A DNA stretch of 64,000 nucleotides from NCBI RefSeq assembly GCF_000027125.1, contig NC_017626.1. One strand, written 5' to 3'. Positions 19,357 to 47,883 of this stretch are shown here, piece after piece; within the stretch, counting starts at the first letter, position 1, and every line of letters starts with the position of its first letter. This DNA comes from Escherichia coli 042. GTDB taxonomy: Bacteria > Pseudomonadota > Gammaproteobacteria > Enterobacterales > Enterobacteriaceae. The notes below the pieces were generated by a model. It was not told the origin of the DNA and made no database searches. It worked only from the letters and a program-made list of their open reading frames with translations. A program made the translations under genes and the position numbers.

Positions 19357-20349
19357 ATGCGGGTTTTGATCGTTAAAACATCGTCGATGGGCGATGTTCT
19401 CCATACGTTGCCCGCACTCACTGATGCCCAGCAGGCAATCCCAGGGATTAAGTTTGACTGGGTGGTGGAAGAAGGGTTCGCACAAATTCCTTCCTGGCAC
19501 GCCGCTGTTGAGCGAGTTATTCCTGTGGCAATACGTCGCTGGCGTAAAGCCTGGTTCTCGGCCCCCATAAAAGCTGAACGGAAAGCGTTTCGTGAAGCGC
19601 TACAAGCAGAGAACTATGACGCAGTTATCGACGCTCAGGGGCTGGTAAAAAGCGCGGCGCTGGTGACGCGTCTGGCACATGGCGTAAAGCATGGAATGGA
19701 CTGGCAAACCGCTCGCGAACCACTGGCAAGCTTGTTTTACAATCGTAAGCATCATATTGCGAAACAGCAGCACGCCGTAGAACGCACCCGCGAACTGTTT
19801 GCCAAAAGTCTGGGCTATAGCAAACCGCAAACCCAGGGCGATTATGCTATTGCACAGCATTTCCTGACGAACCTGCCTACAGATGCTGGCGAATATGCCG
19901 TATTTCTTCATGCGACGACCCGTGATGATAAACACTGGCCGGAAGAACACTGGCGAGATTTGATTGGTTTACTGGCAGATTCAGGAATACGGATTAAACT
20001 TCCGTGGGGCGCGCCGCATGAGGAAGAACGGGCGAAACGACTGGCGGAAGGATTTGCTTATGTTGAAGTATTGCCGAAGATGAGTCTGGAAGGCGTTGCC
20101 CGCGTGCTGGCCGGGGCTAAATTTGTAGTGTCGGTGGATACGGGGTTAAGCCATTTAACGGCGGCACTGGATAGACCCAATATCACGGTTTATGGACCTA
20201 CCGATCCGGGATTAATTGGCGGGTATGGGAAGAATCAAGTAGAGTGTCGTTCTACAAGTATGTCTCTTGCAGATTTGCCAGCTCAAACCGTTTTTCAAAA
20301 TTTAAATCTTGAAATAATAACCAATAAGTTGACATCGGAGATAAGATGA
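19357..20349 (+). CDS. waaC: LPS heptosyltransferase I
   Basis: GT9 family; C-terminal residues differ from K-12 as remembered. Confidence 0.9.
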   Translation: MRVLIVKTSSMGDVLHTLPALTDAQQAIPGIKFDWVVEEGFAQIPSWHAAVERVIPVAIRRWRKAWFSAPIKAERKAFREALQAENYDAVIDAQGLVKSAALVTRLAHGVKHGMDWQTAREPLASLFYNRKHHIAKQQHAVERTRELFAKSLGYSKPQTQGDYAIAQHFLTNLPTDAGEYAVFLHATTRDDKHWPEEHWRDLIGLLADSGIRIKLPWGAPHEEERAKRLAEGFAYVEVLPKMSLEGVARVLAGAKFVVSVDTGLSHLTAALDRPNITVYGPTDPGLIGGYGKNQVECRSTSMSLADLPAQTVFQNLNLEIITNKLTSEIR

Positions 20350-21554
20350 CCTCAACATTATTTTTCTCTCTCGAGAAAAAAAACTGGATAGCGTACTGGA
20401 ACAGAGCTCTCGTATTCTTATTCATTACCACCTATTTTTTGGGTGGGATTACAAGGTATAAACATCTTATTGTTATTCTTATGACAATAACGACAATCGT
20501 CTATCTCTGCAAACGGCCAAAACACTATCTTTCACTATTTAAAACATGTCTTTTTGGTAGTGTTGCCATATTAACTATTGCTGCATTGCTATCACTTCTT
20601 CAATCCCCAGATGCAGGTGCTAGCATGAAGGAAATTTTCAAAGCTATCATTGAAAATACTTTACTATGCACAATAGCAATACCGGTCATATTGAGAGACG
20701 AGAAAAGAGAAGATGTCGAAAAAATCGTTTTCTTCTCATTTATAAGTGCGTTGGGCTTACGTTGTTTTTCTGAATTGATTGCCTATTATAAGGACTATCA
20801 ACAAGGGGTAATGCCATTTGCAGATTATAGACACCGTAGCATTTCTGACTCGATGGTCTTTTTATTTCCTGCATTGTTAAATCTCTGGCTTATCAAATCA
20901 GCAAAATACCGCATTTCTTTTGCGGTTCTAAGCGTTATTTTTATTTTTCTGATATTAGGAACTTTATCCAGAGGAGCCTGGCTTTCCGTGTTAGTCATTG
21001 GATTAATATGGATTCTGATGTTTAAACAATGGAAGTTACTATTAGTAGGAGTAATGGTTTCCATCATTGCATTATCGGTTATTTTCACACATAAGGAGAT
21101 GACCGCAAATCTAACGTATAAACTTCAACAAACTAATAGTTCTTATCGCTATGCAAATGGTACTCAAGGCAGCGCACTCGATCTAATATTAGAAAATCCT
21201 GTTATTGGTTACGGTTACGGTAACGTTGCATATAAAGATGTCTATAATAAACGTGTCGTTGATTATCCAGAATGGACCTTTAGACAATCGATAGGGCCAC
21301 ATAATTTTGCGCTATTCATCTGGTTTGGCACTGGTTTATTAGGGCTGATAAGTCTTATGATGCTATACTGCGCAATATTGAAAGAGTGTATAAAAAATGG
21401 CGTCCAGAATAAAAACCGCTCACCATATAATGCATATTATATAATCTTACTATCTTTTATAGGTTATTTTGTTATCCGTGGAAACGTAGAACAAATTGAA
21501 CCAAATTTATTAGGCGTTTACGCCGGCTTATTATTAGCAATGAAAAACAAGTAA
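20346..21554 (+). CDS. waaL: O-antigen ligase
   Basis: 402 aa AT-rich polytopic membrane protein after waaC. Confidence 0.85.
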   Translation: MTSTLFFSLEKKNWIAYWNRALVFLFITTYFLGGITRYKHLIVILMTITTIVYLCKRPKHYLSLFKTCLFGSVAILTIAALLSLLQSPDAGASMKEIFKAIIENTLLCTIAIPVILRDEKREDVEKIVFFSFISALGLRCFSELIAYYKDYQQGVMPFADYRHRSISDSMVFLFPALLNLWLIKSAKYRISFAVLSVIFIFLILGTLSRGAWLSVLVIGLIWILMFKQWKLLLVGVMVSIIALSVIFTHKEMTANLTYKLQQTNSSYRYANGTQGSALDLILENPVIGYGYGNVAYKDVYNKRVVDYPEWTFRQSIGPHNFALFIWFGTGLLGLISLMMLYCAILKECIKNGVQNKNRSPYNAYYIILLSFIGYFVIRGNVEQIEPNLLGVYAGLLLAMKNK

Positions 21555-21567
21555 AAAAAATAAAAAA

Positions 21568-21590
21568 GGCTGCATAATGCGGCCTTTTTA
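21568..21590. terminator. Bidirectional terminator between waaL and the convergent outer-core operon
   Basis: Hairpin GGCTGCA-TAA-TGCGGCC then TTTTTATTT. Confidence 0.6.
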
Positions 21591-21591
21591 T

Positions 21592-22734
21592 TTATTCAAA
21601 CCAATTATGAATGACCTCTTCGAATCTTTGAGTTACGCCATCCCAACTGTAGTGATCAAACACAAAATCCTGACCTTGCTTTGCAACTGCTGTTAATTCA
21701 GGATTCGCTAACGTTTTTAAAATATCGCTGCTTATGGAGTCTGCAGTCATAGGTTCTTTTAAATGGAATCCCGTAGTATTTTCTTTGACAAATTCCGTCA
21801 TCCCCCCACGCGTACTCACTAAAACAGGCTTACCAGCCCCCATAGCTTCAATTGCCACCATGCAAAATGGTTCCTGGAACTGGGAAGGAATGACAACTAA
21901 ATCTGCCAGTGGGTAATAACAATGCATCTTTTCAGGCGGTATGCTTCCTAACATAATGCAACGATCCTTCAAACGTTTTGCAATTTCCCTGACATTGTGT
22001 TGATATGCACCTTTGTCACTTTTACTCATTTCTGTATAATCACCAATCACAACTAATTTTAAATTTTTGTGAGCAACGGCCAATTTTTCGAATGATTGCA
22101 TCAACAGTAATATGCCTTTGTCAGGGACGATACGCCCAGCATAAAAAATAATTTTCTCTTCAGGGGAGATATTAAGTTCGCTTCTAGTGATCGGCTGAAA
22201 AGTAGATTGATAGGTTTCTAAATCAATTCCATTTGGTACAATCTCAATATCTGCATTTGCTAAATAAGATTGGTAATACTTTTTCAAGTATAAACTAGGC
22301 ACTATCATTTTAACATTTTGCTCAAGCAATTTTGGTTCAAATGCATTATGCATATGAATAACCACTCTTGCCTGAGGAGCTCGCTTACGAATTTGAGTGT
22401 ATAGCTTCATGCTATTATGAACTACAATAACACTTTCTTTCGTTATAGGAAAATCATGGGCAATATTCAATATTCTCTGTGAATATGGTAGAGGATCAAG
22501 TCTTGTCCATTTTTGAAATAACCGCTTATATATGCGACTGAATCCAACCCTATGAATACTACAATTATCATTAACAAAGGTGTAATTTGAGTATCCTGGA
22601 TTCTTGATACAAACAATGCGATTTGGGAAATTGGTACGCTGAGCAACCTGATACATCCACGTTTCAACAGCGGCCGCTCCGCGGGGAGGAATTGAAAAAA
22701 TAGGAGTAACTGTAAATATTATTTTATCAACCAT
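21592..22734 (-). CDS. Outer-core glycosyltransferase, GT4 family (WaaD-like of R3-type cores)
   Basis: 380 aa GT4-like sequence; last gene of the waaQ operon, convergent with waaL. Confidence 0.65.
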   Translation of the reverse strand: MVDKIIFTVTPIFSIPPRGAAAVETWMYQVAQRTNFPNRIVCIKNPGYSNYTFVNDNCSIHRVGFSRIYKRLFQKWTRLDPLPYSQRILNIAHDFPITKESVIVVHNSMKLYTQIRKRAPQARVVIHMHNAFEPKLLEQNVKMIVPSLYLKKYYQSYLANADIEIVPNGIDLETYQSTFQPITRSELNISPEEKIIFYAGRIVPDKGILLLMQSFEKLAVAHKNLKLVVIGDYTEMSKSDKGAYQHNVREIAKRLKDRCIMLGSIPPEKMHCYYPLADLVVIPSQFQEPFCMVAIEAMGAGKPVLVSTRGGMTEFVKENTTGFHLKEPMTADSISSDILKTLANPELTAVAKQGQDFVFDHYSWDGVTQRFEEVIHNWFE

Positions 22735-22742
22735 CTCGAATA

Positions 22743-23756
22743 TTAACCTTTCATAACATTATATTTAATTGCTGTAAAAACACCATTGAGAAATTTTTTC
22801 TGGTAAAGCAAGTGTTTATATTTTTCTTTGTACTCATGTTTTTTAACAGCTTTTTTATAAGGTATATTTCTCCATGGAGATATATTATAAATATTACGAA
22901 AATAATCTGCAGATGCGTAGTCCGCCCAATCATGCCATGGCTTAGTTACACCAGTATAATGTATGAAGACAGTTTCATCATTAATAAACTGGGTGTAATA
23001 TTCACTATTTTTTTCTTCAAATTCTGACTTTATAGTATAAATACAATTATATTTTCTCGGTAATATTTTAGCATGATGTAAAAACATTAAGTTTAAAATA
23101 TCTTGATCCGGATACTTTAATTTTTTGATAATTGACTCATCTGATAATAGATCAAAAAATTTCTCCGTTAGTCTTTGTTGTAACCATTCCCGTAAATTAA
23201 TATACATTACACCAGAGTTAAAATAGCTACCGTTAAAATCCTCATTACATAAACGCTCAGCGCTTTTACTTTGCATAGCATCTACATCAATTACCACAGC
23301 CCCATATTCATCTTTAAACTCTAATGCTATTAACTCGTTCAATGAACCCTTACAGACGATATCAGCATCAAGATATAATAATGAATCCAATCGCGCAGAA
23401 AAATAATCAAATGAAAGCAAACGATAATAAATAGATACTGGCCAGATATTTGATTGAGGTAGCGCCTTCAATGGCTCAGAATCAATATGATATAATTTAA
23501 TTACTGTTTGATACTTCGTTGCTAATTGTGATAATAATTCAATATACTCTTTGTCTAAGTAATCAGCGATTATGTGAAAGGTAAATTTGTTTTGTTTATT
23601 ATTTTCAAGAATTGAAGCAATTGAAATCGCAGCCCCAACCTGGTAGTTCTCATCAATACCCCATGAGACATTAAACGTTTCCCGTTCATCAAGTTTAACG
23701 GGGCGCTTGTCCAGTTCAATTATATCTTTAAATTGAGTAAGATGTTTAAAATCCAA
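22743..23756 (-). CDS. waaJ: Outer-core GT8-family glycosyltransferase (WaaJ-type)
   Basis: 337 aa GT8 (LgtC/RfaJ-like) fold; AT-rich. Confidence 0.7.
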   Translation of the reverse strand: MDFKHLTQFKDIIELDKRPVKLDERETFNVSWGIDENYQVGAAISIASILENNKQNKFTFHIIADYLDKEYIELLSQLATKYQTVIKLYHIDSEPLKALPQSNIWPVSIYYRLLSFDYFSARLDSLLYLDADIVCKGSLNELIALEFKDEYGAVVIDVDAMQSKSAERLCNEDFNGSYFNSGVMYINLREWLQQRLTEKFFDLLSDESIIKKLKYPDQDILNLMFLHHAKILPRKYNCIYTIKSEFEEKNSEYYTQFINDETVFIHYTGVTKPWHDWADYASADYFRNIYNISPWRNIPYKKAVKKHEYKEKYKHLLYQKKFLNGVFTAIKYNVMKG

Positions 23757-23780
23757 TTTAATTACCCTTCATCATAATCA

Positions 23781-24488
23781 TTATTTGCTCTTCAATCCTA
23801 GTTTTACTTTTACATCCCTGATTGCTTTTTTAATTTTCTTTTTGAATATGAGATATGTATAGCCAAAGTCTTTCAATTCATTTTTTATATTATAGTGCCG
23901 TTCAAGATCAATGCGATCTTTTGCTTTTAAAACTGCGGTTGTTTTTTTACCTGAAAGGTCAATTAGTCTTAAACCTTTTTCGGATACTATAAAATTTCCT
24001 TTATGAGGATCGCCAGACACCATTCCATGCTGATGCAACTCTTTTATCGATTCTGATAATTGTTCCTTCAGATCTTCAGAAATTTCCAAATACTCATTTA
24101 ACCCGACACCTTCAATATACTCAATGAGCATAATATAATAATGCGCGAAATTTAATGTTTTACGTTCAGCAAGCAAAAAATAGTCATTAATTGATTGAAT
24201 GCCTTCACCACGTACCCGATCGGTTTGATAAATTAAATTTTCATAATAATCTTTTTTTACGCAAGATTTTAAGAAACGTTCGATCATTTTATGCTTTGGC
24301 GCATAAACTTTAAGTACAAGAGGTCCACGAGCAGTGTCAATAAGAATGACTTTAGTATCATCAATAGAACGAAAAACTTTTAATGTTTTAACCCTGCAAG
24401 TTAAAAAGTCATTCAGCACTTGCTCATAAAAGGGATCATTATCTTTTATGAAAACTTTCAACCCATTTATCGTTTTATTATATATCAT
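23781..24488 (-). CDS. waaY: LPS core heptose II kinase
   Basis: 235 aa small kinase-like protein between two GT8 genes, as waaY is in waa clusters. Confidence 0.75.
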   Translation of the reverse strand: MIYNKTINGLKVFIKDNDPFYEQVLNDFLTCRVKTLKVFRSIDDTKVILIDTARGPLVLKVYAPKHKMIERFLKSCVKKDYYENLIYQTDRVRGEGIQSINDYFLLAERKTLNFAHYYIMLIEYIEGVGLNEYLEISEDLKEQLSESIKELHQHGMVSGDPHKGNFIVSEKGLRLIDLSGKKTTAVLKAKDRIDLERHYNIKNELKDFGYTYLIFKKKIKKAIRDVKVKLGLKSK

Positions 24489-24513
24489 AATGAATTATTT
24501 TAACCTTAAATCT

Positions 24514-25521
24514 TTAGAAGCATTTTTCTTTATAATACTTTAAATAATTAAAAATGCCTGCCATATAATGCTTTTGTTTAAATTTATGTTTTGCACAATA
24601 CCGATACTGATTGCTATTCACAGGTTTAAGTAAATCTTCTTTACACCACGGAGAAGCTGCTTTGGCGATCAAAAAACTACGTGACACCGGATAATCAGCC
24701 CACTCATGCCAGGGTTTTGTAGGTCCCACATAGTGTATAAACACGGTGTCATCATTGACTGGATTATCAACTTTGTCTTTTAATTCATAGTTAATACTAT
24801 ATCGGGTATTATATTTCCCCGAAATAAACTTCACTTTACCATTCAATAATACATTCAGTACATCTTGATCAAGGTGGGTGATTTTACTTACCCAATCTGG
24901 GTCACGCAACATTTCAATAGCTTTTGACGAAATGTTATTTAGATTCCACTCATCAATATTTATCAGCAAAAAACCAGCATTGAAATATCCAGAAGCTAAT
25001 TGTGGTGTAGTTAATACCGAGGCTCGATTCTGCCACCATTCAACATCTCTTTCAGCTACAACTGCGGCAATTTCATTAGTAGAGAATTGATAATCTAAGA
25101 GTTCTTTAATACTACCCTTGCAAGCAATATCTGCATCAAGGTATAGTATTTTTTCATGTTTATTATAGAAATAATCTGCAATTATAAATCGAAAATATGT
25201 AGCGTAAGTCCAGTTTTTCGTGCTTGGTAATGACTTCAGCTTATCACAATTGATAACATAAATATTAATTCTTGAATTATATTGTTTTGCTAAATCGGAA
25301 AAATATAACTTGTCTTTATCACTGATATAATCTGTGAAAACATGAAATTCACAAGAGATTTCGCTATTGTTTAATAGAATAGATGCGATGGCTACACCAC
25401 ATCCAAAAAGAAAATTTCTGTCAATACCAAATGCGATATCAAGAGTATTTTTAGATCTTATATTTTGATAATGAAAGTTATACTCAAAAAGGATGATGTC
25501 ACTATCATTGAGTTGAGACAT
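24514..25521 (-). CDS. waaI: Outer-core GT8-family glycosyltransferase (WaaI/WaaO-type)
   Basis: 335 aa GT8 sequence directly downstream of waaP. Confidence 0.7.
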   Translation of the reverse strand: MSQLNDSDIILFEYNFHYQNIRSKNTLDIAFGIDRNFLFGCGVAIASILLNNSEISCEFHVFTDYISDKDKLYFSDLAKQYNSRINIYVINCDKLKSLPSTKNWTYATYFRFIIADYFYNKHEKILYLDADIACKGSIKELLDYQFSTNEIAAVVAERDVEWWQNRASVLTTPQLASGYFNAGFLLINIDEWNLNNISSKAIEMLRDPDWVSKITHLDQDVLNVLLNGKVKFISGKYNTRYSINYELKDKVDNPVNDDTVFIHYVGPTKPWHEWADYPVSRSFLIAKAASPWCKEDLLKPVNSNQYRYCAKHKFKQKHYMAGIFNYLKYYKEKCF

Positions 25522-25563
25522 ATTTATTCTGTATCCAAAATTTTGGCAAAAATAAGTTACGGG

Positions 25564-26370
25564 TTACAACGATTTTCTAATCGTTCTTTCCCTGATTTTT
25601 GTGGCTTTTGCTTCTGCTTGCGACAGCAGTCCTTGTTCCTGCTTGAGAATGTCTTTAAGCGGGGCGGCAAAATACACTTTCATAAACCGCCAGATATCCC
25701 GCTGAGTCAGGCCAATATTCATCGAAGAAAAATAAAGCCCAATAAGATCTTTATCGCGCCAACGACGTGGAACGCGCGTGCGAAGCTGCGCCCGGTGCAG
25801 GTCAATTACCGAAATTTTTAACTCCTCTTCCTTACCGGAAAAAGGCAAGTGCAGCAGGAAATGACAGATATAACAGTCACGGTGGTTAATGCCCGCAGCA
25901 TGCATATCGCGCACCATCATCGCGACACGCTTAATAAGCATACGCTTTACGCGAACATCTGGAGGGTTAGTCGCCCAGTCAGCACAGTAATCTTCCAGAC
26001 TGATGGTTGGTGTCAGATCTTCGGTTATAATAAACGAGGTTCTGGTGAGCGGATTAATGCCTTTTTCGCCGAATGCCACCCCATACATAGTATCAACGCC
26101 GACATCCCGCAGTCGATGAATCGCATTCCATTCGCGGTCTGCGCCTAATACTGGCATCCGCAATGAGAGTAAATTTTTGATTATCTCTTTCAGGGTCGTG
26201 CCGCGATGCCATTTGAGAAAATAGCTTTTGCCCGCCATTTCAAAGCGCAGAGTACGGCGAGTTTCCAGTTCACGAAATACCTCACCCTGCAAAGTTTTAA
26301 CTTCCTCAAAAGGATCTTTTCCGCGCCATAACGTGGCAAACGGCTCTTTAAGTTCAACCATCCAGACCAC
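25564..26370 (-). CDS. waaP: LPS core heptose I kinase
   Basis: 268 aa, [21 protein letters not shown]... Confidence 0.9.
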
Positions 26371-27478
26371 CCGTTATGATATCCGCCGCTTTCTCTGGCA
26401 GACTGTATAAATCTTGTGTATCAGCATAATGTCGCGCATTTTCCGCCCAGGCCTGGCGCAATGAAGATTGCGTTAACGCTTTGCGTAAAATCTCATTCAA
26501 TGTTTCCTGGCGGAATGGCTCAGCAATAGCCTCGCCACAATTGGCCTCGACAATATAAGGCGCATAGCCACAAACGGCTGTTGTTAGTACCGGTAATCCT
26601 GCAGTAATCGCTTCCAGCAGCACAATTCCCGCCGCTTCCTGGTAGGCAGGATGCAGTAATAAATCCGCCGCCGCCATTAATTCCGAGACATCGTTGCGCC
26701 CCGAGAAGAAGTGAACATTACTGCGCACGCCGCGTTTTTCTGCCAGCGCCTCAAATTTTCGCGGTTTATCCTGCCCAACAACATATAGCAATGTGTTGTG
26801 GCGCAGCGAATCCGGTAACGAAGCAAGTGCTTCAATGGAACGATCGACACCTTTACGCGTGAAGTCTGAACCGACCTGCAACAATAAATATTGTTGTTCG
26901 GTTATTCCATTCTTCTTACGGAAGATTTCACGGCTATTGGCTGGCTGCTGGCTATATTTACGATCAGGATAAATCCCCGGTGGCAGAATATGAAAACGCT
27001 CCACTTCAGTCTGATAATGTTTCTGGAAATCGGCGATTTGCTTATCTGTCAGCATCAGCAGCTGTGTCGGCTTGCCCTGTTCGAAGGTTGCCCGCTCAAA
27101 GGCGGCATAATGGCGATAACGTGACGTCAGGCGATAGAAAAAGCCTTTTTCCTGCGCTACTTTCTCGGCATAACAAACATCAGCGGCATAATAAACGTCC
27201 AGCCCCGGCATTTTGTTGAATCCAACGACTTTATCGACGGGATGTTCGCGTAAATGTTTTTGCACCCAGGCAAAATACTCCGCATTGCGCCCGTGATTGG
27301 TATGCGATTTAACCGGCACTTTGATCAGTTCAAATACATCAGGGCATTCGCCTTCCCACGACTGGGCATAAACCCGAACATGATGACCTCGGGCGGCGAC
27401 TGTCTGAGCAATACGCATAAAATCGCGCTGCAAACCGCCAAAGGGAAAATATTTATATAAACAAAAAGCAACGATCAT
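26354..27478 (-). CDS. waaG: LPS glucosyltransferase I
   Basis: 374 aa GT4 sequence ([20 protein letters not shown]...). Confidence 0.92.
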
Positions 27479-28533
27479 AACGACGTACCTGTCGTGGAGG
27501 AGGGCAGTAATTTATCGACAGCAGCAATGACATCTGCCGCCGGAATAACCGAAAGATACATCTCATTTCGGTCACGCTGATCGCGCGTTGGCATTTCCCG
27601 GTAATCTCCCGCCCAGAATTGAATCATGTTATTTGACCAGGGACGCCAGAAAATATGGTCTGTCGCACCAAACAGCGATATCAGCGGCGTATTAACTGCA
27701 GCGGCAATATGCGCCGGTGCGGAATCAACGCCAATAAACAGCTGGGCATGATCGATTAACGCACCAAGTTCCGGGAAGGTCACCTTTCCAGCCAGCGCCG
27801 TTACTGGTGGCGTCTGGCATCCCTGCGCAATTTCATTGACGCAGACCAGATCGTCTTTATCTGGGCCGGACGTCAGAACGACTTCATAACCACGAGCATG
27901 TAAGGCATCAATCACAGCGGAAAACTTGGCGTTGTCCCAGCATTTGAAGATTTGCCGCGCCGTAGGTTGGATAACCACATAATTTTGTCCAACACCAGCG
28001 TGATCAAGTTCGCGACGCATACGTTTCCAGCTTGCAGGCGGGTAACTCATGGTTGTCTGCTTCACCAACGATTCAAGTCCCAATGGCGACAGCACGGATA
28101 AGTTACTTTCCACCACATTTCCCCCCTGCAACGGCACCAAATGAGTGAAACTATTACGCCAAAAAGCAGACTGCCGATGATGATAATCCTGGGAAATTTT
28201 CACACGGGCATTTAATAAGCGCACCAGTATAGCAACCATCCATTGATCGGTAAGATTAACGATAAGGTCATACTTATTGGCACGTAATACCTTGATGAGA
28301 TGAAAAAAGTTGGCAATTTTTTCTGCGGCTTTTGCTTTTTTATTTTTTATGCCGTAGAGCGCGTTAATCTCTGGATTTTCAGATAGGATCGGGATGGTGT
28401 CCTGATAAAGCAGCACATCGATTTTTGCGTCAGGGTAATTTTTTTTCAGCGAACTAATGACGGGAGTAGTTAATAACATATCCCCATGAAAACGCATCTT
28501 AATGAGCAAAATTCTTCGAAATGGCTTATCCAC
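27475..28533 (-). CDS. waaQ: LPS heptosyltransferase III
   Basis: 352 aa GT9 sequence; first gene of the waaQ operon. Confidence 0.9.
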   Translation of the reverse strand: MDKPFRRILLIKMRFHGDMLLTTPVISSLKKNYPDAKIDVLLYQDTIPILSENPEINALYGIKNKKAKAAEKIANFFHLIKVLRANKYDLIVNLTDQWMVAILVRLLNARVKISQDYHHRQSAFWRNSFTHLVPLQGGNVVESNLSVLSPLGLESLVKQTTMSYPPASWKRMRRELDHAGVGQNYVVIQPTARQIFKCWDNAKFSAVIDALHARGYEVVLTSGPDKDDLVCVNEIAQGCQTPPVTALAGKVTFPELGALIDHAQLFIGVDSAPAHIAAAVNTPLISLFGATDHIFWRPWSNNMIQFWAGDYREMPTRDQRDRNEMYLSVIPAADVIAAVDKLLPSSTTGTSL

Positions 28534-28582
28534 AAGTAACTCTTTTTGTTGAGATTATCCGATTAAGGTGAAGCAGAAAAAG

Positions 28583-28594
28583 CACGCTACCGCC
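28583..28594 (-). promoter_or_regulatory. ops element (GGCGGTAGCGTG) in the waaQ leader
   Basis: Plus strand reads CACGCTACCGCC, the exact reverse complement of the 12-nt ops RfaH-recruitment motif, about 50 bp upstream of the waaQ start. Confidence 0.8.
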
Positions 28595-28945
28595 CCAGGC
28601 TCAACAGCTACCTGAATACTGATACCGCACTGATATTGACGCGCTAGTGTATCACTTCTTTCGCGGCAATCCGACCCGAATGATTTTTAAGCACATTGTT
28701 GATTTTCAATAAAGAAATCAATCAAATAAAATCATTAGCAACTATATTCTTTTACTGTTGCTCTGCGATTCCTTCCTGCACGTACTGCAGAAATCAATGA
28801 ATCGCATAAAAATACAAAAAAAGTATAGATGTTCAGCAAGAATTGGCGGGTAAATTGCTATTTAAGTCAAAAACGGGAAAAGTAATGGTAAAGCCACAGC
28901 TAAATACATAGAATCCCCAGCACATCCATAAGTCAGCTATTTACT

Positions 28946-30710
<1,765 letters not shown>

Positions 30711-32971: not shown

Positions 32972-33136
32972 CTCCTTTGTGGTGCTCGCATCCTGTCATA
33001 GCCGTTCCGTTAAATCGACGGCCAGTTTTCAATCCTGGAAAGCGCCTCGCAAAGTGATTCTCAGGTGAAGGCACGACAACAAAAGTATTGTGATAAAATC
33101 GCCAACTTCTGGTGTCACCCAACAGGAAAAATCATC

Positions 33137-34357
33137 ATGAGCCTGGCCGGTAAAAAAATCGTTCTCGGCGTCAGCGGCGGTATTGCTGCCTATAAAACCC
33201 CTGAACTGGTGCGTCGTTTGCGCGATCGCGGGGCCGACGTCCGCGTAGCCATGACCGAAGCGGCAAAAGCCTTTATCACCCCACTTAGCTTGCAGGCGGT
33301 TTCTGGTTATCCCGTTTCCGACAGTCTGCTGGACCCGGCAGCCGAAGCCGCTATGGGCCATATTGAGCTGGGTAAATGGGCTGATTTAGTGATTCTCGCC
33401 CCTGCCACGGCAGATTTGATTGCCCGTGTTGCTGCCGGAATGGCGAATGATCTGGTATCGACGATTTGTCTGGCCACACCTGCGCCTGTAGCCGTGCTCC
33501 CCGCCATGAACCAGCAGATGTACCGTGCCGCTGCCACGCAGCATAATTTAGAGGTGCTTGCTTCCCGTGGTTTGCTCATCTGGGGGCCAGACAGTGGCAG
33601 TCAGGCTTGTGGTGATATCGGCCCTGGGCGAATGCTCGATCCGTTAACCATTGTTGATATGGCGGTAGCGTATTTTTCGCCCGTCAACGACCTGAAACAT
33701 CTGAACATTATGATTACCGCCGGCCCGACGCGTGAACCGCTCGATCCGGTGCGTTATATCTCTAATCACAGCTCAGGCAAGATGGGTTTTGCTATCGCCG
33801 CCGCCGCTGCCCGTCGTGGCGCGAACGTCACGCTGGTATCAGGTCCGGTTTCACTACCGACGCCACCGTTTGTTAAACGTGTTGATGTGATGACTGCGCT
33901 GGAAATGGAAGCGGCCGTGAATGCTTCTGTACAGCAGCAAAATATTTTTATCGGTTGCGCCGCCGTGGCGGATTATCGCGCAGCTACCGTGGCCCCAGAG
34001 AAAATCAAAAAGCAGGCCACGCAGGGTGATGAATTAACAATAAAAATGGTTAAAAACCCCGATATCGTCGCAGGCGTTGCCGCACTAAAAGACCATCGAC
34101 CCTACGTCGTTGGATTTGCCGCCGAAACAAATAATGTGGAAGAATACGCCCGGCAAAAACGTATCCGTAAAAACCTTGATCTGATCTGCGCGAACGATGT
34201 TTCCCAGCCAACTCAAGGATTTAACAGCGACAACAACGCATTACACCTTTTCTGGCAGGACGGAGATAAAGTCTTACCGCTTGAGCGCAAAGAGCTCCTT
34301 GGCCAATTATTACTCGACGAGATCGTGACCCGTTATGATGAAAAAAATCGACGTTAA
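33137..34357 (+). CDS. dfp: Bifunctional phosphopantothenoylcysteine decarboxylase / synthetase
   Basis: 406 aa from [20 protein letters not shown]. Confidence 0.93.
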
Positions 34358-38011: not shown

Positions 38012-38053
38012 TATCATGAGCTATCATAACGACGCAACAAAGCGCACAATATG

Positions 38054-38077
38054 CGTGTACATAGAGGTGTACATAAT
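38054..38077. repeat. Left direct repeat (attL core)
   Basis: CGTGTACATAGAGGTGTACATAAT, 22 of 24 identical to the right repeat; itself a GTGTACATA tandem; more GTACA motifs follow at 38085–38108. Confidence 0.75.
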
Positions 38078-38134
38078 GACTTTCATGTACATTGCTTTAT
38101 GTACACACCCATATTCGATATTCAGGTATTCGCA

Positions 38135-39394
38135 ATGCCAAAACTCACAGATATGCAGATCCGCGCATGGATAAAGGCGGGAGACAGATTTGATGGCAAG
38201 GCAGACGGCAACGGCCTTTATATTTGCTACCCAAAAAACTACACAGTCCCGTTCTGGCGATTCCGCTATAAGCTCGCAGGAAAGCAGCGGGCTATGGTTA
38301 TAGGCTCTTACTCCGAACTGTCACTATCAAAAGCCAGAGAAACAGCAAAAGAGCTGTCAGCCAGAGTTGCTCTTGGCTATGACGTAGCAGCAGAGAAACA
38401 GGAACGAAAAGCTGAAGCACTGGCAAAAATGGAGGCTGAGAAAAACGCCATGTGCGTTTCAGATCTGGCCGCCGAATACTTCGAGCGCCAGATACTTCCA
38501 AGATGGAAACATCCCGATATCCTTCGCCGGAGAATTGATAAGGATATTAACCCCTGCATTGGGCATATGAAGGTGGAGGACGTTAAGCCACGCCACATTG
38601 ACGACATGTTGAAAGGTATCGTTGACCGAGGAGCACCAACGATAGCAACAGATGTATTACGCTGGACACGCCGTATCTTTGACTATGGGATAAAACGCCA
38701 CGCTCTGGAGATAAACCCTTGTTCAGCGTTTGAAGTATCTGATGCTGGTGGTAAAGAGGTTTCCCGCGACCGTTGGCTAACTCGCGATGAGCTTATCAGG
38801 CTATTCGAAGCTATGCGCACCGCAAAAGGATTCAGCCGCCAGAACGAACTGACATTTAAGCTATTGCTGGCACTATGCGTTCGTAAGATGGAGTTATGCG
38901 CCGCACGATGGGAAGAGTTTGATTTAGATGGTGCGGTATGGCATTTGCCGGAAGAACGCAGCAAAAACGGAGACCCTATTGATATACCTCTACCTTCCCC
39001 AGCCGTTGAATGGTTGAGAGAGCTACACACCTTTTCATGTAATAGCGCATGGGTGCTTCCAGCCAGGAAGATGCAAAACAGAATGATCCCACATATTCAG
39101 GAAAGCACTTTGCCCGTAGCACTGGCTAAGGTTCGCGCCGAAATACCGGATGTGCCTAATTTCACGATTCACGACTTCCGACGCACCGCACGTACTCATT
39201 TAGCAGCGTTGGGTGTTGATCCTGTCGTGGCGGAACGATGCCTCAATCATCGCATTAAGGGCGTAGAGGGGATTTATAACCGCCATCAGTATTTTGATGA
39301 GCGTAAAGCAGCACTGGCACAGTGGGCTGATCTGCTGGTGGCACTGGAAAGCGGAAAAGACCACAACGTAACGCCTCTCAGAAGGGCGAACTAA
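38135..39394 (+). CDS. int: Tyrosine site-specific integrase (P4-like)
   Basis: Start taken at the internal Met (MPKLTDMQIRAWIKAG); C-terminal catalytic region with HDFRRTARTHL and GIYNRHQY motifs. Confidence 0.88.
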   Translation: MPKLTDMQIRAWIKAGDRFDGKADGNGLYICYPKNYTVPFWRFRYKLAGKQRAMVIGSYSELSLSKARETAKELSARVALGYDVAAEKQERKAEALAKMEAEKNAMCVSDLAAEYFERQILPRWKHPDILRRRIDKDINPCIGHMKVEDVKPRHIDDMLKGIVDRGAPTIATDVLRWTRRIFDYGIKRHALEINPCSAFEVSDAGGKEVSRDRWLTRDELIRLFEAMRTAKGFSRQNELTFKLLLALCVRKMELCAARWEEFDLDGAVWHLPEERSKNGDPIDIPLPSPAVEWLRELHTFSCNSAWVLPARKMQNRMIPHIQESTLPVALAKVRAEIPDVPNFTIHDFRRTARTHLAALGVDPVVAERCLNHRIKGVEGIYNRHQYFDERKAALAQWADLLVALESGKDHNVTPLRRAN

Positions 39395-39489
39395 CTGAAT
39401 AGATTGAGCCTAGCTCGACGGGGCGAAAAGCGGGAAGCCTTACCGCCTGGCTCAATCACAAAATAAGGCGCAGCGTAAAAGGTGACGCA

Positions 39490-42103: not shown

Positions 42104-43164
42104 CCGTCCAGAAGAAGATATTTTCACTGGCTGGTATGTCGCCAAAATCCAGCAATATGACAGCAAAGTCTGGCATTAATACAGCAGATGCAAGCAAAGT
42201 TTATCATTTTCTGGTGGTAGGAGCGGATGCCTTAACTATGTCAGAAATTACGGTCGATGGTGTTAGCGTTGAGAAGGTCGGCGGCTGCGCCAGAGAATTT
42301 CTGGTCGTAGATGGCTTTCTCTGCTCGCGTAGTGACTCCACAAAAACCTTCGTCCACACGCGCGACGTTAACGAAATGAGCGCGATGTATTGTGCATCTG
42401 GTGCTTCCAATAGTGAGTTTTCGGAGTCCATAAAAAAGAGCTTGCCGTTATGCGGCAACACGGTTTATGGTTATAAGGCACCTCATAAAACGGGTGCCGG
42501 GATTGGCGTCCTGGTAAATCGAATGGCGACATATGACGCGCCGAGCGTCTTTTTTTATGTCGTAGGTCTGACTCACCCATTTTTTGGGCGTTGGTGTATA
42601 ATCCAGCGCCTTTGTCAATCAATGGTGGCTCAGGCAGGGGCTTCTTCGGAAGCGCCGGTATCCATTCGAGCCGGTTACGCCAACCCTGTCTGGGCTACCA
42701 CCAGCGAAATTGGCGTTTCCGGTGGTAGCGTTACATGCTATCGAATGGAGGCTGCCACATGCTGGCTACTACCCCTACCCAAAAACCGCAATTTATCTGG
42801 ATTATCGCCGCAGTTCGCCGCGATTGCCCGACAATTACCGCCAAAATTCATCATATTGCTGCCGAGTCTGAACGCGATGCTCGCCGTTCTCTGGTGCGCG
42901 ATCACGTCTGCTTTTTTGCTGGTCGTATCCGCATGGAGGTGGCACATGATTAAAACCTACGATGTGCATATGGATCCCCTCGAACGCACAAGCCAGATCA
43001 TCACACTGACAGAAGTGATTAACGACATTCTGGTGAGCAACTCTCCCTCACGAGACGAAAGACTGAAGGCGTTACTCGCGATATTGGATCTCGCCGTTCG
43101 TGACGTTCATTTCCTGCTGGAAGGTGGCGAAATGCCAGGAAAAACGGGGGCAACCAATGAATAA
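42097..43164 (+). CDS. Hypothetical island protein; gene boundaries uncertain, possibly two genes read through in one frame
   Basis: 355-codon open frame with an ATGCTAA start overlap; its middle is overlapped by a more gene-like ORF in another frame and an internal ATG at 42946 overlaps that ORF's stop. Confidence 0.35.
42759..42953 (+). CDS. Small protein, possibly Icd-like cell-division inhibitor family
   Basis: [22 protein letters not shown]... in an alternative frame inside the 355-codon ORF; resemblance to Icd-like proteins is from memory. Confidence 0.4.
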   Translation: MLATTPTQKPQFIWIIAAVRRDCPTITAKIHHIAAESERDARRSLVRDHVCFFAGRIRMEVAHD

Positions 43165-44776: not shown

Positions 44777-45140
44777 AAATGCAGAAATGGCGCTTAGCTC
44801 CGCAATCGGAGAGCAGGTGGCAAAGATTGCTGGCGCTGTGTGGATTCATAACCTTCATTCTACTGGTGAAGAGAAAATGGCAATTCAGACGCCAGAGGGA
44901 CGCACCATTACTACATCTCTGAAGGCGTCAGATGTTTGTGATCTGATTTGCGCATTCATGTACCCAGCAATGAGGACTGTCCACGGCGATAAGTGGAAAC
45001 TTGCGACAACCGCTGAATTTGATATGTGGCTAAACAATGATGGCATGCTGACTGATTACGGAATAACCAAGTGGCAGATGCTGGTTAGCCATATCGCAAA
45101 CGCTATAGACCACGTGGGGTACGGTGATGCGAAACATTGA
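44769..45140 (+). CDS. Hypothetical island protein
   Basis: 123-aa ORF overlapping both neighbours. Confidence 0.5.
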   Translation: MRENAEMALSSAIGEQVAKIAGAVWIHNLHSTGEEKMAIQTPEGRTITTSLKASDVCDLICAFMYPAMRTVHGDKWKLATTAEFDMWLNNDGMLTDYGITKWQMLVSHIANAIDHVGYGDAKH

Positions 45141-47883
45141 TCTTATCCGCCAGGTTATCAGTGCGTCTGAAAACAACTGGCCTCATGTGCTGGGCTGCCT
45201 GAACATAAATGTCCCTGACTCTCCGCGCCGTCATGCTCCCTGCCCTGCATGTGGGGGCAAAGATCGATTCCGGTTCGATGACAACGGGCGCGGTAGCTTC
45301 ATCTGTAATCAGTGCGGCGCTGGTGATGGACTGGATTTAATTAAACGCGTAAATAACTGCGACACAACAGAGGCGGCGCTTCTTGCCGCTGATGTTCTGG
45401 GTATTGATTACCGGACAACGGAAACACCAGAAGCCACCAGCCAGAAACGGGAACAACTGGAAACCGAGCGCCAGCGACGCGAACAGGAGCGCCTGAAAAG
45501 GGCAGAGAAGGACGAACAACAAAGACGGGATACGTTTTCCCGTCAGTTTGATGACATGCGCAGAAAGGCTGTAAACGGCAAATCTGATTATCTGGTTGCG
45601 AAAGGGGTAGGTGATTTTACATTCCCCGTGTTGCCCGATGGATCTCTGTTGCTGGCGCTGGTGGATAAATCCGGCGCAGTAACAGCAGCACAGACTATTA
45701 CCTCACATGGTGAAAAAAGACTCCTGACAGGTTCAGCAAAGCGAGGGGCATATCACGCCATAAACGCACCAGAAACAACACAGAGCATCTTAATCGCAGA
45801 AGGGCTGGCAACGGCATTATCTGCCCATTTAATTCGTCCAGAGGCGCTGACAGTGGCGGCGATTGATGCCGGGAACCTGTTATATGTCGCCCAGGTACTG
45901 CGGGATAAATTTCCTTCAGCACAAATCATCATTGCTGCGGATAACGACCACAGCGAAGGAAGACAAAACACGGGGAGAATAGCAGCAGAAAAAGCAGCTT
46001 TATCTGTTTCTGGATGGGTGGCATTACCCCCGACAGATCACAAAGCAGACTGGAATGATTACCACCAAAAACACGGCATTAAATGCGCCACAGAAGCGTT
46101 CAATAAGTCAATGTACCAACCACAGGGTAATGGCGTGAAACAGGAGCCACAGACCATTGAGGGAAGCGATTTTAAGGTTATGGATACCGACCCACTGAAA
46201 CCAAGAATAGAAAGCCGCGAGGATGGTATTTATTGGGTATCTCCGAGAGCTGACAGCCAGAGTGGAGAAATCATCAATAACGAAAGCTGGTTATGTTCTC
46301 CGTTAAGCGTTATCGGTACTGGCAGAGACGATAAAGACCAGTATCTCATTCTTCGCTGGCTGTCGTTTGGTTCTGAAACGCCGACAACCGCTGCCATTCC
46401 ACTGGCTGATATTGGTGAACGTGAAGGATGGCGCACACTTAAAGCTGGTGGGGTAAATGTCACGACCAAAAGCAGCCTCAGAGCAATACTGGCAGACTGG
46501 CTACAACGCAGTGGCTCTCGTGAATTGTGGCGTGTTGCTCATGCCACTGGCTGGCAATGCGGAGCGTACATCATGCCTGATGGGGAAATCATCGGAACAC
46601 CTGAAAATCCTGTGCTGTTCAGCGGGAGAAGCTCAGCCGCAGCCGGATATACCGTCTCAGGGAGCGCGAAAAGCTGGCGTGATAACGTGGCGCGTCTGGC
46701 CTTTGGTAACTATTCAATGATGACCGGGATCGGCGCAGCACTGGCAGCGCCATTGATTGGGCTGGTGGGCGCTGACGGGTTCGGCATTCATTTCTATGAG
46801 CAGTCGAGCGCAGGTAAGACCACCACGGCAAACGTGGCGAGCAGCTTATACGGCAACCCTGATTTACTGCGGCTGACGTGGTACGGAACCGCGCTGGGGC
46901 TGGCAAATGAGGCCGCCGCCCACAATGACGGACTAATGCCGCTTGATGAAGTTGGTCAGGGCGCTGATCCTGTCAGCGTTTCACAGTCTGCCTATGCGTT
47001 ATTTAACGGTGTAGGGAAACTGCAAGGCGCTAAAGATGGTGGAAACCGGGATCTAAAACGCTGGCGTACAGTGGCAATCAGCACCGGAGAAATGGATTTA
47101 GAAACATTTATCGCTACTTCCGGGCGAAAAACCAAAGCCGGGCAACTGGTGCGACTGCTGAATATTCCGTTGAGTAAAGCAGTACGCTTTCACGATTACC
47201 AGAACGGAAAACAGCACGCAGACGCACTGAAAGACGCTTACCAGCATCACCACGGCGCAGCCGGGCGTGAGTGGATTAAATGGCTGGCAGACCACCAGCA
47301 ACAGGCAATTAAAACTGTTCGTGACTGCGAAAGCAGATGGAGAAGTCTGATCCCATCCGATTATGGTGAGCAGGTTCACCGTGTAGCCGCGCGATTTGCC
47401 ATTCTGGAGGCCGCATTGCTGTTAGGCGAGGTTGTAACAGGCTGGGATGCTCAGACATGCCGTGATGCGATACAGCACAGCTATAACGCATGGTTGCGCG
47501 AGTTCGGCACAGGTAACAAAGAACATCAGCAGATTATTGAACAAACGGAGGCATTTCTTAATGCCTATGGGCTTAGCCGTTTTGCACCATTTCCATACAG
47601 CCCGGCAGATTTGCCCATCAAAGATTTAGCCGGATACCGTCAGCGTGGAGAACATGACGAAAGCCCAATGATTTTCTACACATTCCCGGCCACATTTGAA
47701 AAGGAGATCGCATGTGGTTTCAACGCAAAACAGTTTGCTGAAGTGTTGAAAAAAGCCGGGATGCTAACCCCACCAAACAGCGGTCGTGGATACCAAAGAA
47801 AATCACCACGTATTCAGGGACGACAAATAAACGTTTATGTACTCAATTACCAGCCAGGAGATTACAACTCATCTGAAGAATGA
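45124..47883 (+). CDS. Primase / helicase replication protein (P4 alpha-like)
   Basis: 919 aa: N-terminal zinc-binding element (CPACGGKDRFRFDD...CNQCG), a central acidic primase-like region, and a C-terminal P-loop (SSAGKTTTANV). Confidence 0.85.
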   Translation: MMRNIDLIRQVISASENNWPHVLGCLNINVPDSPRRHAPCPACGGKDRFRFDDNGRGSFICNQCGAGDGLDLIKRVNNCDTTEAALLAADVLGIDYRTTETPEATSQKREQLETERQRREQERLKRAEKDEQQRRDTFSRQFDDMRRKAVNGKSDYLVAKGVGDFTFPVLPDGSLLLALVDKSGAVTAAQTITSHGEKRLLTGSAKRGAYHAINAPETTQSILIAEGLATALSAHLIRPEALTVAAIDAGNLLYVAQVLRDKFPSAQIIIAADNDHSEGRQNTGRIAAEKAALSVSGWVALPPTDHKADWNDYHQKHGIKCATEAFNKSMYQPQGNGVKQEPQTIEGSDFKVMDTDPLKPRIESREDGIYWVSPRADSQSGEIINNESWLCSPLSVIGTGRDDKDQYLILRWLSFGSETPTTAAIPLADIGEREGWRTLKAGGVNVTTKSSLRAILADWLQRSGSRELWRVAHATGWQCGAYIMPDGEIIGTPENPVLFSGRSSAAAGYTVSGSAKSWRDNVARLAFGNYSMMTGIGAALAAPLIGLVGADGFGIHFYEQSSAGKTTTANVASSLYGNPDLLRLTWYGTALGLANEAAAHNDGLMPLDEVGQGADPVSVSQSAYALFNGVGKLQGAKDGGNRDLKRWRTVAISTGEMDLETFIATSGRKTKAGQLVRLLNIPLSKAVRFHDYQNGKQHADALKDAYQHHHGAAGREWIKWLADHQQQAIKTVRDCESRWRSLIPSDYGEQVHRVAARFAILEAALLLGEVVTGWDAQTCRDAIQHSYNAWLREFGTGNKEHQQIIEQTEAFLNAYGLSRFAPFPYSPADLPIKDLAGYRQRGEHDESPMIFYTFPATFEKEIACGFNAKQFAEVLKKAGMLTPPNSGRGYQRKSPRIQGRQINVYVLNYQPGDYNSSEE

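Follow-up and report, generated by a model that had tools for sequence, protein, structure and literature searches.

An Exact ops Element at the 3' End of a Complete JUMPstart Sequence in the waaQ Leader of Escherichia coli 042

Results

An Exact ops Element Lies in the waaQ Leader

The stretch of Escherichia coli 042 DNA that was analyzed (64 kb in full; hereafter the window) contains, at positions 28583-28594 of the minus strand, what we consider with a probability of about 0.93 to be part of the canonical ops/JUMPstart element of the waaQ (rfaQ) LPS-core operon, its dependence on RfaH being drawn from the literature on strains K-12 and CFT073. Identity, strand, position, family membership and conservation of the ops were all observed in the present analysis. 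The ops of the waaQ leader is already well characterized, and the one described here is genuine, properly oriented and ordinary. The features on which this assignment is based are the following:

28583..28594, minus strand: ops element GGCGGTAGCGTG, with the T11 pause position at 28584 and G12 at 28583
28583..28621, minus strand: JUMPstart, 39 nt, CAGTATTCAGGTAGCTGTTGAGCCTGGGGCGGTAGCGTG (Rfam RF01707), of which ops is the 3' end
27475..28533, minus strand: waaQ/rfaQ (heptosyltransferase III), first gene of the operon, GTG start, 352 aa
28946..30223, plus strand: WaaA (906 bits)

A search of the window sequence revealed that GGCGGTAGCGTG is an exact 12/12 match to ops, read from 28594 to 28583, and that it is the only exact copy in the 64 kb. 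The same 12-mer was found in none of 100 dinucleotide-preserving shuffles of the window. An earlier note, made from the letters of this DNA, had reported an exact ops in the waaQ leader at this place, and the full-length match, unique in the window, bore this out. Relative to waaQ the element is on the coding (non-template) strand, and it reads in sense within the predicted leader, with 49 nt between its G12 (28583) and the waaQ GTG (28533). This agrees with the distance of about 50 bp upstream of waaQ on its coding strand given in that note, a distance that hinges on the start codon, since the gap to the ATG annotated for waaQ in MG1655 (window 28497) would be 85 nt. The neighboring waaA gene is divergent from waaQ and transcribed from the plus strand; an assignment of the ops to waaA was ruled out by strand. 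The earlier note had also named a motif on the non-transcribed strand as the outcome that would speak against its reading. The orientation of ops with waaQ was confirmed, and the wording itself turned out to be ambiguous, because the non-template (that is, the non-transcribed) strand is precisely the one on which ops must lie (PMC5995543).

The covariance model RF01707 matched the minus strand at 28621..28583 with 55.2 bits, against a gathering score of 35 (E = 6e-12), and the alignment spanned model positions 1-38 of 38. No other match to this model was present in the window. Since the model matches this segment end to end, the 12-mer is the 3' end of a complete JUMPstart. The window's element thus has every feature by which the ops/RfaH system is recognized at the sequence level; the rfaH gene lies outside the 64-kb window.

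The waaQ Gene, Its Predicted Leader Transcript, and Its Putative Promoter

The waaQ ORF scored 709.8 bits against NCBIfam PRK10422, for which the cutoff is 467. In identical genomes PGAP places the start of the gene at the same GTG as that used here, and in MG1655 the gene is annotated from an ATG located 36 nt further in. The GTG at 28533 was favored over the ATG at 28497 because the alignment to the TIGR02201/heptosyltransferase profile starts at residue 7 of the GTG-initiated ORF, and because the GTG is the only start codon between the upstream in-frame TAA and that residue. All that precedes this GTG is a weak Shine-Dalgarno-like sequence, AAGAG. The lack of a canonical ribosome-binding site has been described for RfaH-controlled operons (PMC6358824).

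The homologous leader of MG1655 carries an annotated ncRNA of 73 nt, rirA (b4760; NC_000913.3 3808166..3808238, minus strand), and the segment 3808238..3808166 aligns with window positions 28639..28567. Two further features could be placed by means of this alignment:

28567..28639, minus strand: RirA equivalent (first 73 nt of the waaQ 5' UTR), by homology to MG1655 b4760, with ends inferred from it
28646..28654, minus strand: putative extended -10 element TGATACACT, from the sequence and the position of the MG1655 rirA 5' end

Homology to K-12 would place the start of waaQ transcription close to 28639 of the minus strand, which is about 45 nt ahead of ops. With this predicted start the 5' UTR to the GTG would measure 106 nt, and ops would occupy approximately +46..+57 of the transcript, in the numbering that follows from the mapped 5' end of MG1655 rirA/waaQ. 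The RirA-equivalent segment contains JUMPstart, then ops, and then a T5 run (28581..28577). The earlier note had taken the site as confirmation of both the orientation and the 5' boundary of the operon. The orientation is indeed fixed by ops; the boundary is not, because ops lies inside the transcript, and what it shows is a promoter further upstream.

TGATACACT has its final base 7 nt before the predicted start site. Four E. coli alleles carry this element unchanged, and among 44 cross-genus leaders it forms the consensus at positions -60..-52 counted from ops. Judging from its sequence and placement, waaQ transcription is probably driven by an extended -10 promoter. A simple -35/-10 scan missed TGATACACT; on the minus strand, the sole sigma70 match was TTGAAA-18-AATCAT (28709..28680), which would set the start about 33 nt upstream of the 5' end mapped in K-12 and could possibly represent a second or alternative promoter. 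The PGAP records of this waaA-waaQ spacer allele have no feature annotated at the leader, the rirA equivalent being omitted.

The Operon Downstream of ops

The transcription unit headed by waaQ comprises seven genes over 6.9 kb, from 28533 to 21592 on the minus strand, in the order rfaQ, waaG, rfaP/waaP, waaO, rfaY/waaY, the gene for UDP-glucose:(galactosyl)LPS alpha-1,2-glucosyltransferase, and the gene for an LPS GlcNAc-transferase. The gene rfaL/waaL belongs to the opposing rfaD-rfaF-rfaC operon. We take this gene layout to be that of an R3-type core. The distal half of the operon has a GC content of 0.30-0.38, and on its sequence the waa operon of the window fits the description of the units rescued by RfaH, which are long and AT-rich and have poor ribosome-binding sites. 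The operon body and its presumed end are represented by:

21592..27478, minus strand: operon genes downstream of waaQ, from their ORFs and a 100% identical annotated region of strain Ecol_316
21563..21589, strand not assigned: terminator-like hairpin AAAAAGGCTGCATAATGCGGCCTTTTT, a 12-pair stem flanked by an A-run and a T-run

The hairpin AAAAAGGCTGCATAATGCGGCCTTTTT is perfectly palindromic (A5-stem-T5) and is located in the 37-bp gap between the last gene of the waaQ operon and the convergent waaL. The terminator scan called it on the plus strand only. Given the flanking A-run, it likely terminates on the minus (operon) strand too, as a bidirectional terminator, and would then likely be the 3' end of the RfaH-modified transcription unit.

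Collinearity of the window with strain PCN033, and with it an R1-type operon in the window, was refuted by blastn, the window differing at 20.2-25.6 kb. The outer-core part of the waa cluster (20238-25563) is unlike that of PCN033, whose layout is presumably R1-type, despite a 100% identical waaQ leader. Since the two genomes share the leader and differ at 20238-25563, a conserved leader appears to be joined to exchangeable outer-core cassettes. The intergenic query was 100% identical in PCN033, yet the window carries relative to that strain a 21-kb insertion at 37.9-59.0 kb (37947-59035), between yicC and yicG. This insertion encodes an integrase (38051-39394), an AntA antirepressor, an Ash-family protein, a BRO-N protein, a P4-alpha-like primase-helicase (45124-47883), and P22-type ejection proteins, gp7 and gp20-like (49101-51199), and it shows Rfam matches to int-alpA (39403-39469), isrK (42478-42555), and C4 antisense RNA (42618-42705). 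Its make-up resembles that of a prophage or satellite mosaic. No tRNA genes were found in the 64-kb window.

Conservation of the Leader in E. coli and in Other Genera

The waaA-waaQ spacer exists in E. coli as two main alleles that are only about 80% identical overall, and a search with the spacer alone returned 934 records in the 60-80% identity band. The 601-nt waaA-waaQ region of the window is 100% identical in many complete E. coli genomes. Against this variable background, the block running from the putative -10 through JUMPstart and ops to the T-run is nearly invariant between the alleles. The alignment with known waaQ leaders, including JUMPstart, that the earlier note had suggested as a check gave the expected result, the JUMPstart/ops block being invariant between the window allele and the K-12-type allele. 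A 71-nt leader query matched a single location in each of 5424 of the 5426 complete E. coli genomes, in all cases with at least 90% identity. In E. coli E2 (NZ_CP104509.1, positions 1-504 of the extracted locus L004) the spacer contains, about 250 bp before rfaQ, a transposase gene (IS4-like, ISVsa5), which replaces variable spacer and leaves the promoter-leader-ops block intact.

In order to sample waaQ loci independently of ops, one genome per species was searched for MR[F/Y]HGDM, the N-terminal peptide of WaaQ, by means of a degenerate DNA pattern. This yielded 81 matches, 61 of which were WaaQ homologues from Enterobacterales outside E. coli; the sample is biased to waaQ genes having the exact peptide and a CGN arginine codon, and it is not a census. 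An exact ops 12-mer was present within 450 nt upstream in 42 of the 61 loci, always on the sense strand, and the chance of an exact 12-mer in a random stretch of 450 nt is about 3e-5. In those 42 loci the distance from the 12-mer to the conserved waaQ ATG was 58-86 nt, with 58-59 nt in four Citrobacter/Kluyvera loci and 75-86 nt in the others. The genera bearing the exact element include Escherichia, Salmonella, Citrobacter, Kluyvera, Cedecea, Kosakonia, Pluralibacter, Pseudocitrobacter, Shimwellia, Silvania, Leminorella, and Buttiauxella. One further locus had the 8-nt core with a G12A change, and two Kluyvera species had versions with 2-3 mismatches at an unchanged distance. Within this same sample, no ops was found upstream of waaQ in Providencia, Moellerella, Arsenophonus, Hartigia, or Siccibacter, and the upstream sequence of two of the 61 loci was too short to judge.

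When 44 distinct leaders from many genera were anchored on the 8-nt core, the ops positions outside the anchor (9-12) were 98-100% conserved. Conservation fell to 40-60% within about 20 nt in the flanks, and the T-run following ops was 82-93% conserved across genera. A second exact 12-mer was encountered inside waaG, in antisense orientation, in Pseudescherichia vulneris and in a related MAG (plus strand, 2186-2197 of extracted locus L012 and 2816-2827 of L076), about 1.5 kb from the ops of the waaQ leader. It is probably incidental, and would be relevant to antisense transcription only.

Other ops-Like Sites and Alternative Readings of the Conserved Block

The window contains further sequences that resemble ops in part:

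2453, plus strand: GGCGGTAG core in lldP, sense
35929, plus strand: GGCGGTAG core in pyrE, antisense
59599, minus strand: GGCGGTAG core in yicG, antisense (these three cores match 8-10 of the 12 ops positions)
33661-33672, plus strand: one-mismatch ops-like site GGCGGTAGCGTA, 11/12, inside coaBC (ORF 33065..34357)

These sites bear on whether the 12-mer in the waaQ leader could itself be a functionless product of chance or of coding constraints, since the window holds five copies of the 8-mer GGCGGTAG, compared with 1.23 expected from shuffles, and the four cores other than that of the waaQ leader are all intragenic (sense in lldP and coaBC, antisense in pyrE and yicG), where codon usage can yield such a core. 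The excess of cores is likely due to codon composition. The full 12-mer, however, was absent from all shuffles, is intergenic and on the sense strand inside a full JUMPstart, and keeps its position across E. coli and many other genera; an origin by chance is hardly credible and is already refuted by the conservation and the family model. We also considered the other GGCGGTAG cores as additional RfaH sites, and rejected them, given that all are intragenic, two are antisense, none lies within a JUMPstart, and the ChIP-seq data from CFT073 argue against such sites (PMC9765446). In that strain, RfaH ChIP signal was seen at 0 of 22 intragenic ops sites on the non-template strand (PMC9765446). The closest of the partial matches, GGCGGTAGCGTA in coaBC, occupies the sense (non-template) strand, and a T-run (GGCGGTAGCGTAttttt) comes after it, as at a real ops. 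It differs from ops in having an A in place of G12, a base that is needed for the U11 pause (PMC5995543), and this site is probably inert.

A different alternative is that the conserved block is mainly an RNA signal and not one read in DNA, acting either through the JUMPstart hairpin or as a trans-acting RirA by which RfaH is sequestered. The Rfam JUMPstart model that the window matches treats the element as a hairpin-bearing cis-regulatory RNA, and a CAGGU/GCCUG hairpin could form in the upstream half of JUMPstart, its 5-bp stem being pairable in 100% of cells in 31 distinct waaQ leaders. The role of this upstream half is not accounted for by the ops mechanism. Moreover, RirA of K-12 carries the ops sequence and can titrate RfaH, and its overexpression mimics a delta-rfaH mutant (PMC6358824, PMC8745692). 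However, structural and biochemical work has established that RfaH reads the non-template DNA strand (PMC5995543, PMC9765446), the covariation of the JUMPstart stem is weak (one pair with two-sided changes, equalled in 73 of 500 shuffles), and the effects of RirA were reported upon overexpression. An RNA-level action would supplement the DNA mechanism and would not replace it; as the main function of the block we regard it as quite improbable.

Folding of the Leader RNA and Possible Attenuation

The leader might also work as an RfaH-sensitive attenuator, whether in addition to serving as a DNA loading site or in place of that role. In such an arrangement, the segment AGUGCG-GUAUC-AGU (+9..+22) would pair with the ops RNA (+47..+59), directly followed by the U5 run; polymerase lacking RfaH would terminate there, releasing the RirA of about 73 nt, and RfaH loaded at ops would allow read-through. 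Folding of 28639..28567 did give, at -19.3 kcal/mol, a long imperfect hairpin that encloses the inner JUMPstart stem and has UUUUU directly after it. In 43 distinct cross-genus leaders, 91.2% of the cells of this extended hairpin can pair, against 30-51% when the partner is slid; this slide control is inflated, because a single member of the alignment was the source of the structure. On the side facing the invariant ops, C-G replaces U.G in 9 sequences and A-U replaces G.U in 7. Changes on both sides were seen at three pairs, and the observed values were reached by 11-15 of 500 shuffles, counts within the range possible for unstructured related sequences. The conservation of the T-run across genera points in the same direction, and RfaH is reported to lower termination at some factor-independent signals (PMC2871177).

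Other observations argue against attenuation. The energy of the extended hairpin is no better than that of shuffled sequences (z = -0.46, and z = 0.08 for a longer leader), RNAalifold recovered the short JUMPstart stem alone and did not predict the extended helix, and a simple terminator scan of 28400..29050 found nothing. In addition, the annotated 3' end of RirA lies about 9 nt past the U-run and not inside it, and leaders of the Citrobacter youngae type have no U-run. An alternative hairpin overlapping ops, GCUGUUG/CGGUAGC, was rejected, as it showed no two-sided changes and was pairable in 89% of cells against 80% for the slid register; the shuffle test was uninformative for this hairpin, its 3' side being invariant. 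Taken as a whole, the evidence for attenuation is suggestive only, and an attenuator in the waaQ leader is rather doubtful. The same tentative standing applies to a self-contained feedback loop setting LPS-core output, in which polymerases without RfaH would pause at ops, terminate a few nucleotides further on, and release a RirA that titrates RfaH. Were attenuation to operate, it would explain the production of RirA and would add a layer of feedback to a textbook antitermination system.

Discussion

The canonical ops/JUMPstart element remains our preferred reading of the conserved block, as the DNA site at which RfaH would be recruited to the waaQ operon. The nearest known system is the waaQ leader of K-12. 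Its 39-nt JUMPstart and 12-nt ops are identical to those of the window, and they occupy the same place upstream of waaQ, beside a divergent waaA and at the same spacing from the mapped 5' end. Over the leader/RirA segment, K-12-type leaders are about 93% identical to the window. The two strains differ in that the window has the other major waaA-waaQ spacer allele. The run after ops is T5 in the window and T6 in K-12, and the operon layout downstream also differs, that of the window having seven genes with waaL in the opposite operon. The ops sequences of the rfb/wzx O-antigen, kps capsule, and hlyCABD hemolysin operons share the 12-nt consensus and the T11-G12 pause dinucleotide, and like that of waaQ they lie on the non-template strand of a 5' leader that precedes a long, AT-rich, H-NS-bound operon; their leaders have other lengths and flanks than the waaQ leader. 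The tra operon of the F plasmid is another RfaH-controlled operon with ops. A comparison that covered waaQ leaders alone showed in them the conserved U-run and a 5' segment with complementarity to ops.

RfaH-controlled operons all have the 12-nt ops in their leader (PMC5995543), and the waaQ operon, with ops and JUMPstart in its 5' UTR, has been identified as one of the targets (PMC6358824, PMC8745692). Its RfaH-dependent expression has been documented (PMC6358824, PMC8745692, PMC5449661), and in CFT073 the RfaH ChIP-seq signal begins at the ops of the rfa leader, with a sigma70 peak upstream (PMC9765446). The statement of the earlier note that antitermination of the waaQ operon through RfaH and ops is well established is therefore supported by the literature (PMC6358824, PMC8745692, PMC5449661, PMC9765446).

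The course of events in strain 042 can be proposed by analogy. RNA polymerase is known to pause at U11 of ops (PMC5995543), and it would do so here on transcribing GGCGGTAGCGTG. Within the transcription bubble, the exposed non-template strand would fold into a small hairpin (C3:G8 in the ops studied) that flips out T6 and presents it to RfaH, which would read this structure; bases 3-8 of ops are needed for the recruitment of RfaH and T11-G12 for the pause (PMC5995543). The C-terminal domain of RfaH would then refold, and the protein would remain on polymerase through the rest of the operon. RfaH has indeed been described to stay on polymerase to the end of the operon, excluding NusG, reducing pausing and Rho-dependent termination, and recruiting ribosomes (PMC5449661), and to counter the termination stimulated by H-NS/StpA (PMC9765446). 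On the waaQ operon, bound RfaH would accordingly be expected to exclude NusG, to suppress pausing and the premature termination that depends on Rho or H-NS, and to help bring ribosomes to genes with poor ribosome-binding sites. As a result, all seven genes of this distally AT-rich operon would be expressed, waaQ being the first and the GlcNAc-transferase gene the last.

The value of the element is mainly for annotation, in that it fixes the orientation of the LPS-core operon, a promoter upstream of 28621, and the position of the rirA equivalent, and points to the dependence of the operon on RfaH. For the biology of the organism, it belongs to an established picture, in which RfaH-dependent synthesis of the LPS core bears on sensitivity to serum, bile, detergents, and phages, and on virulence.
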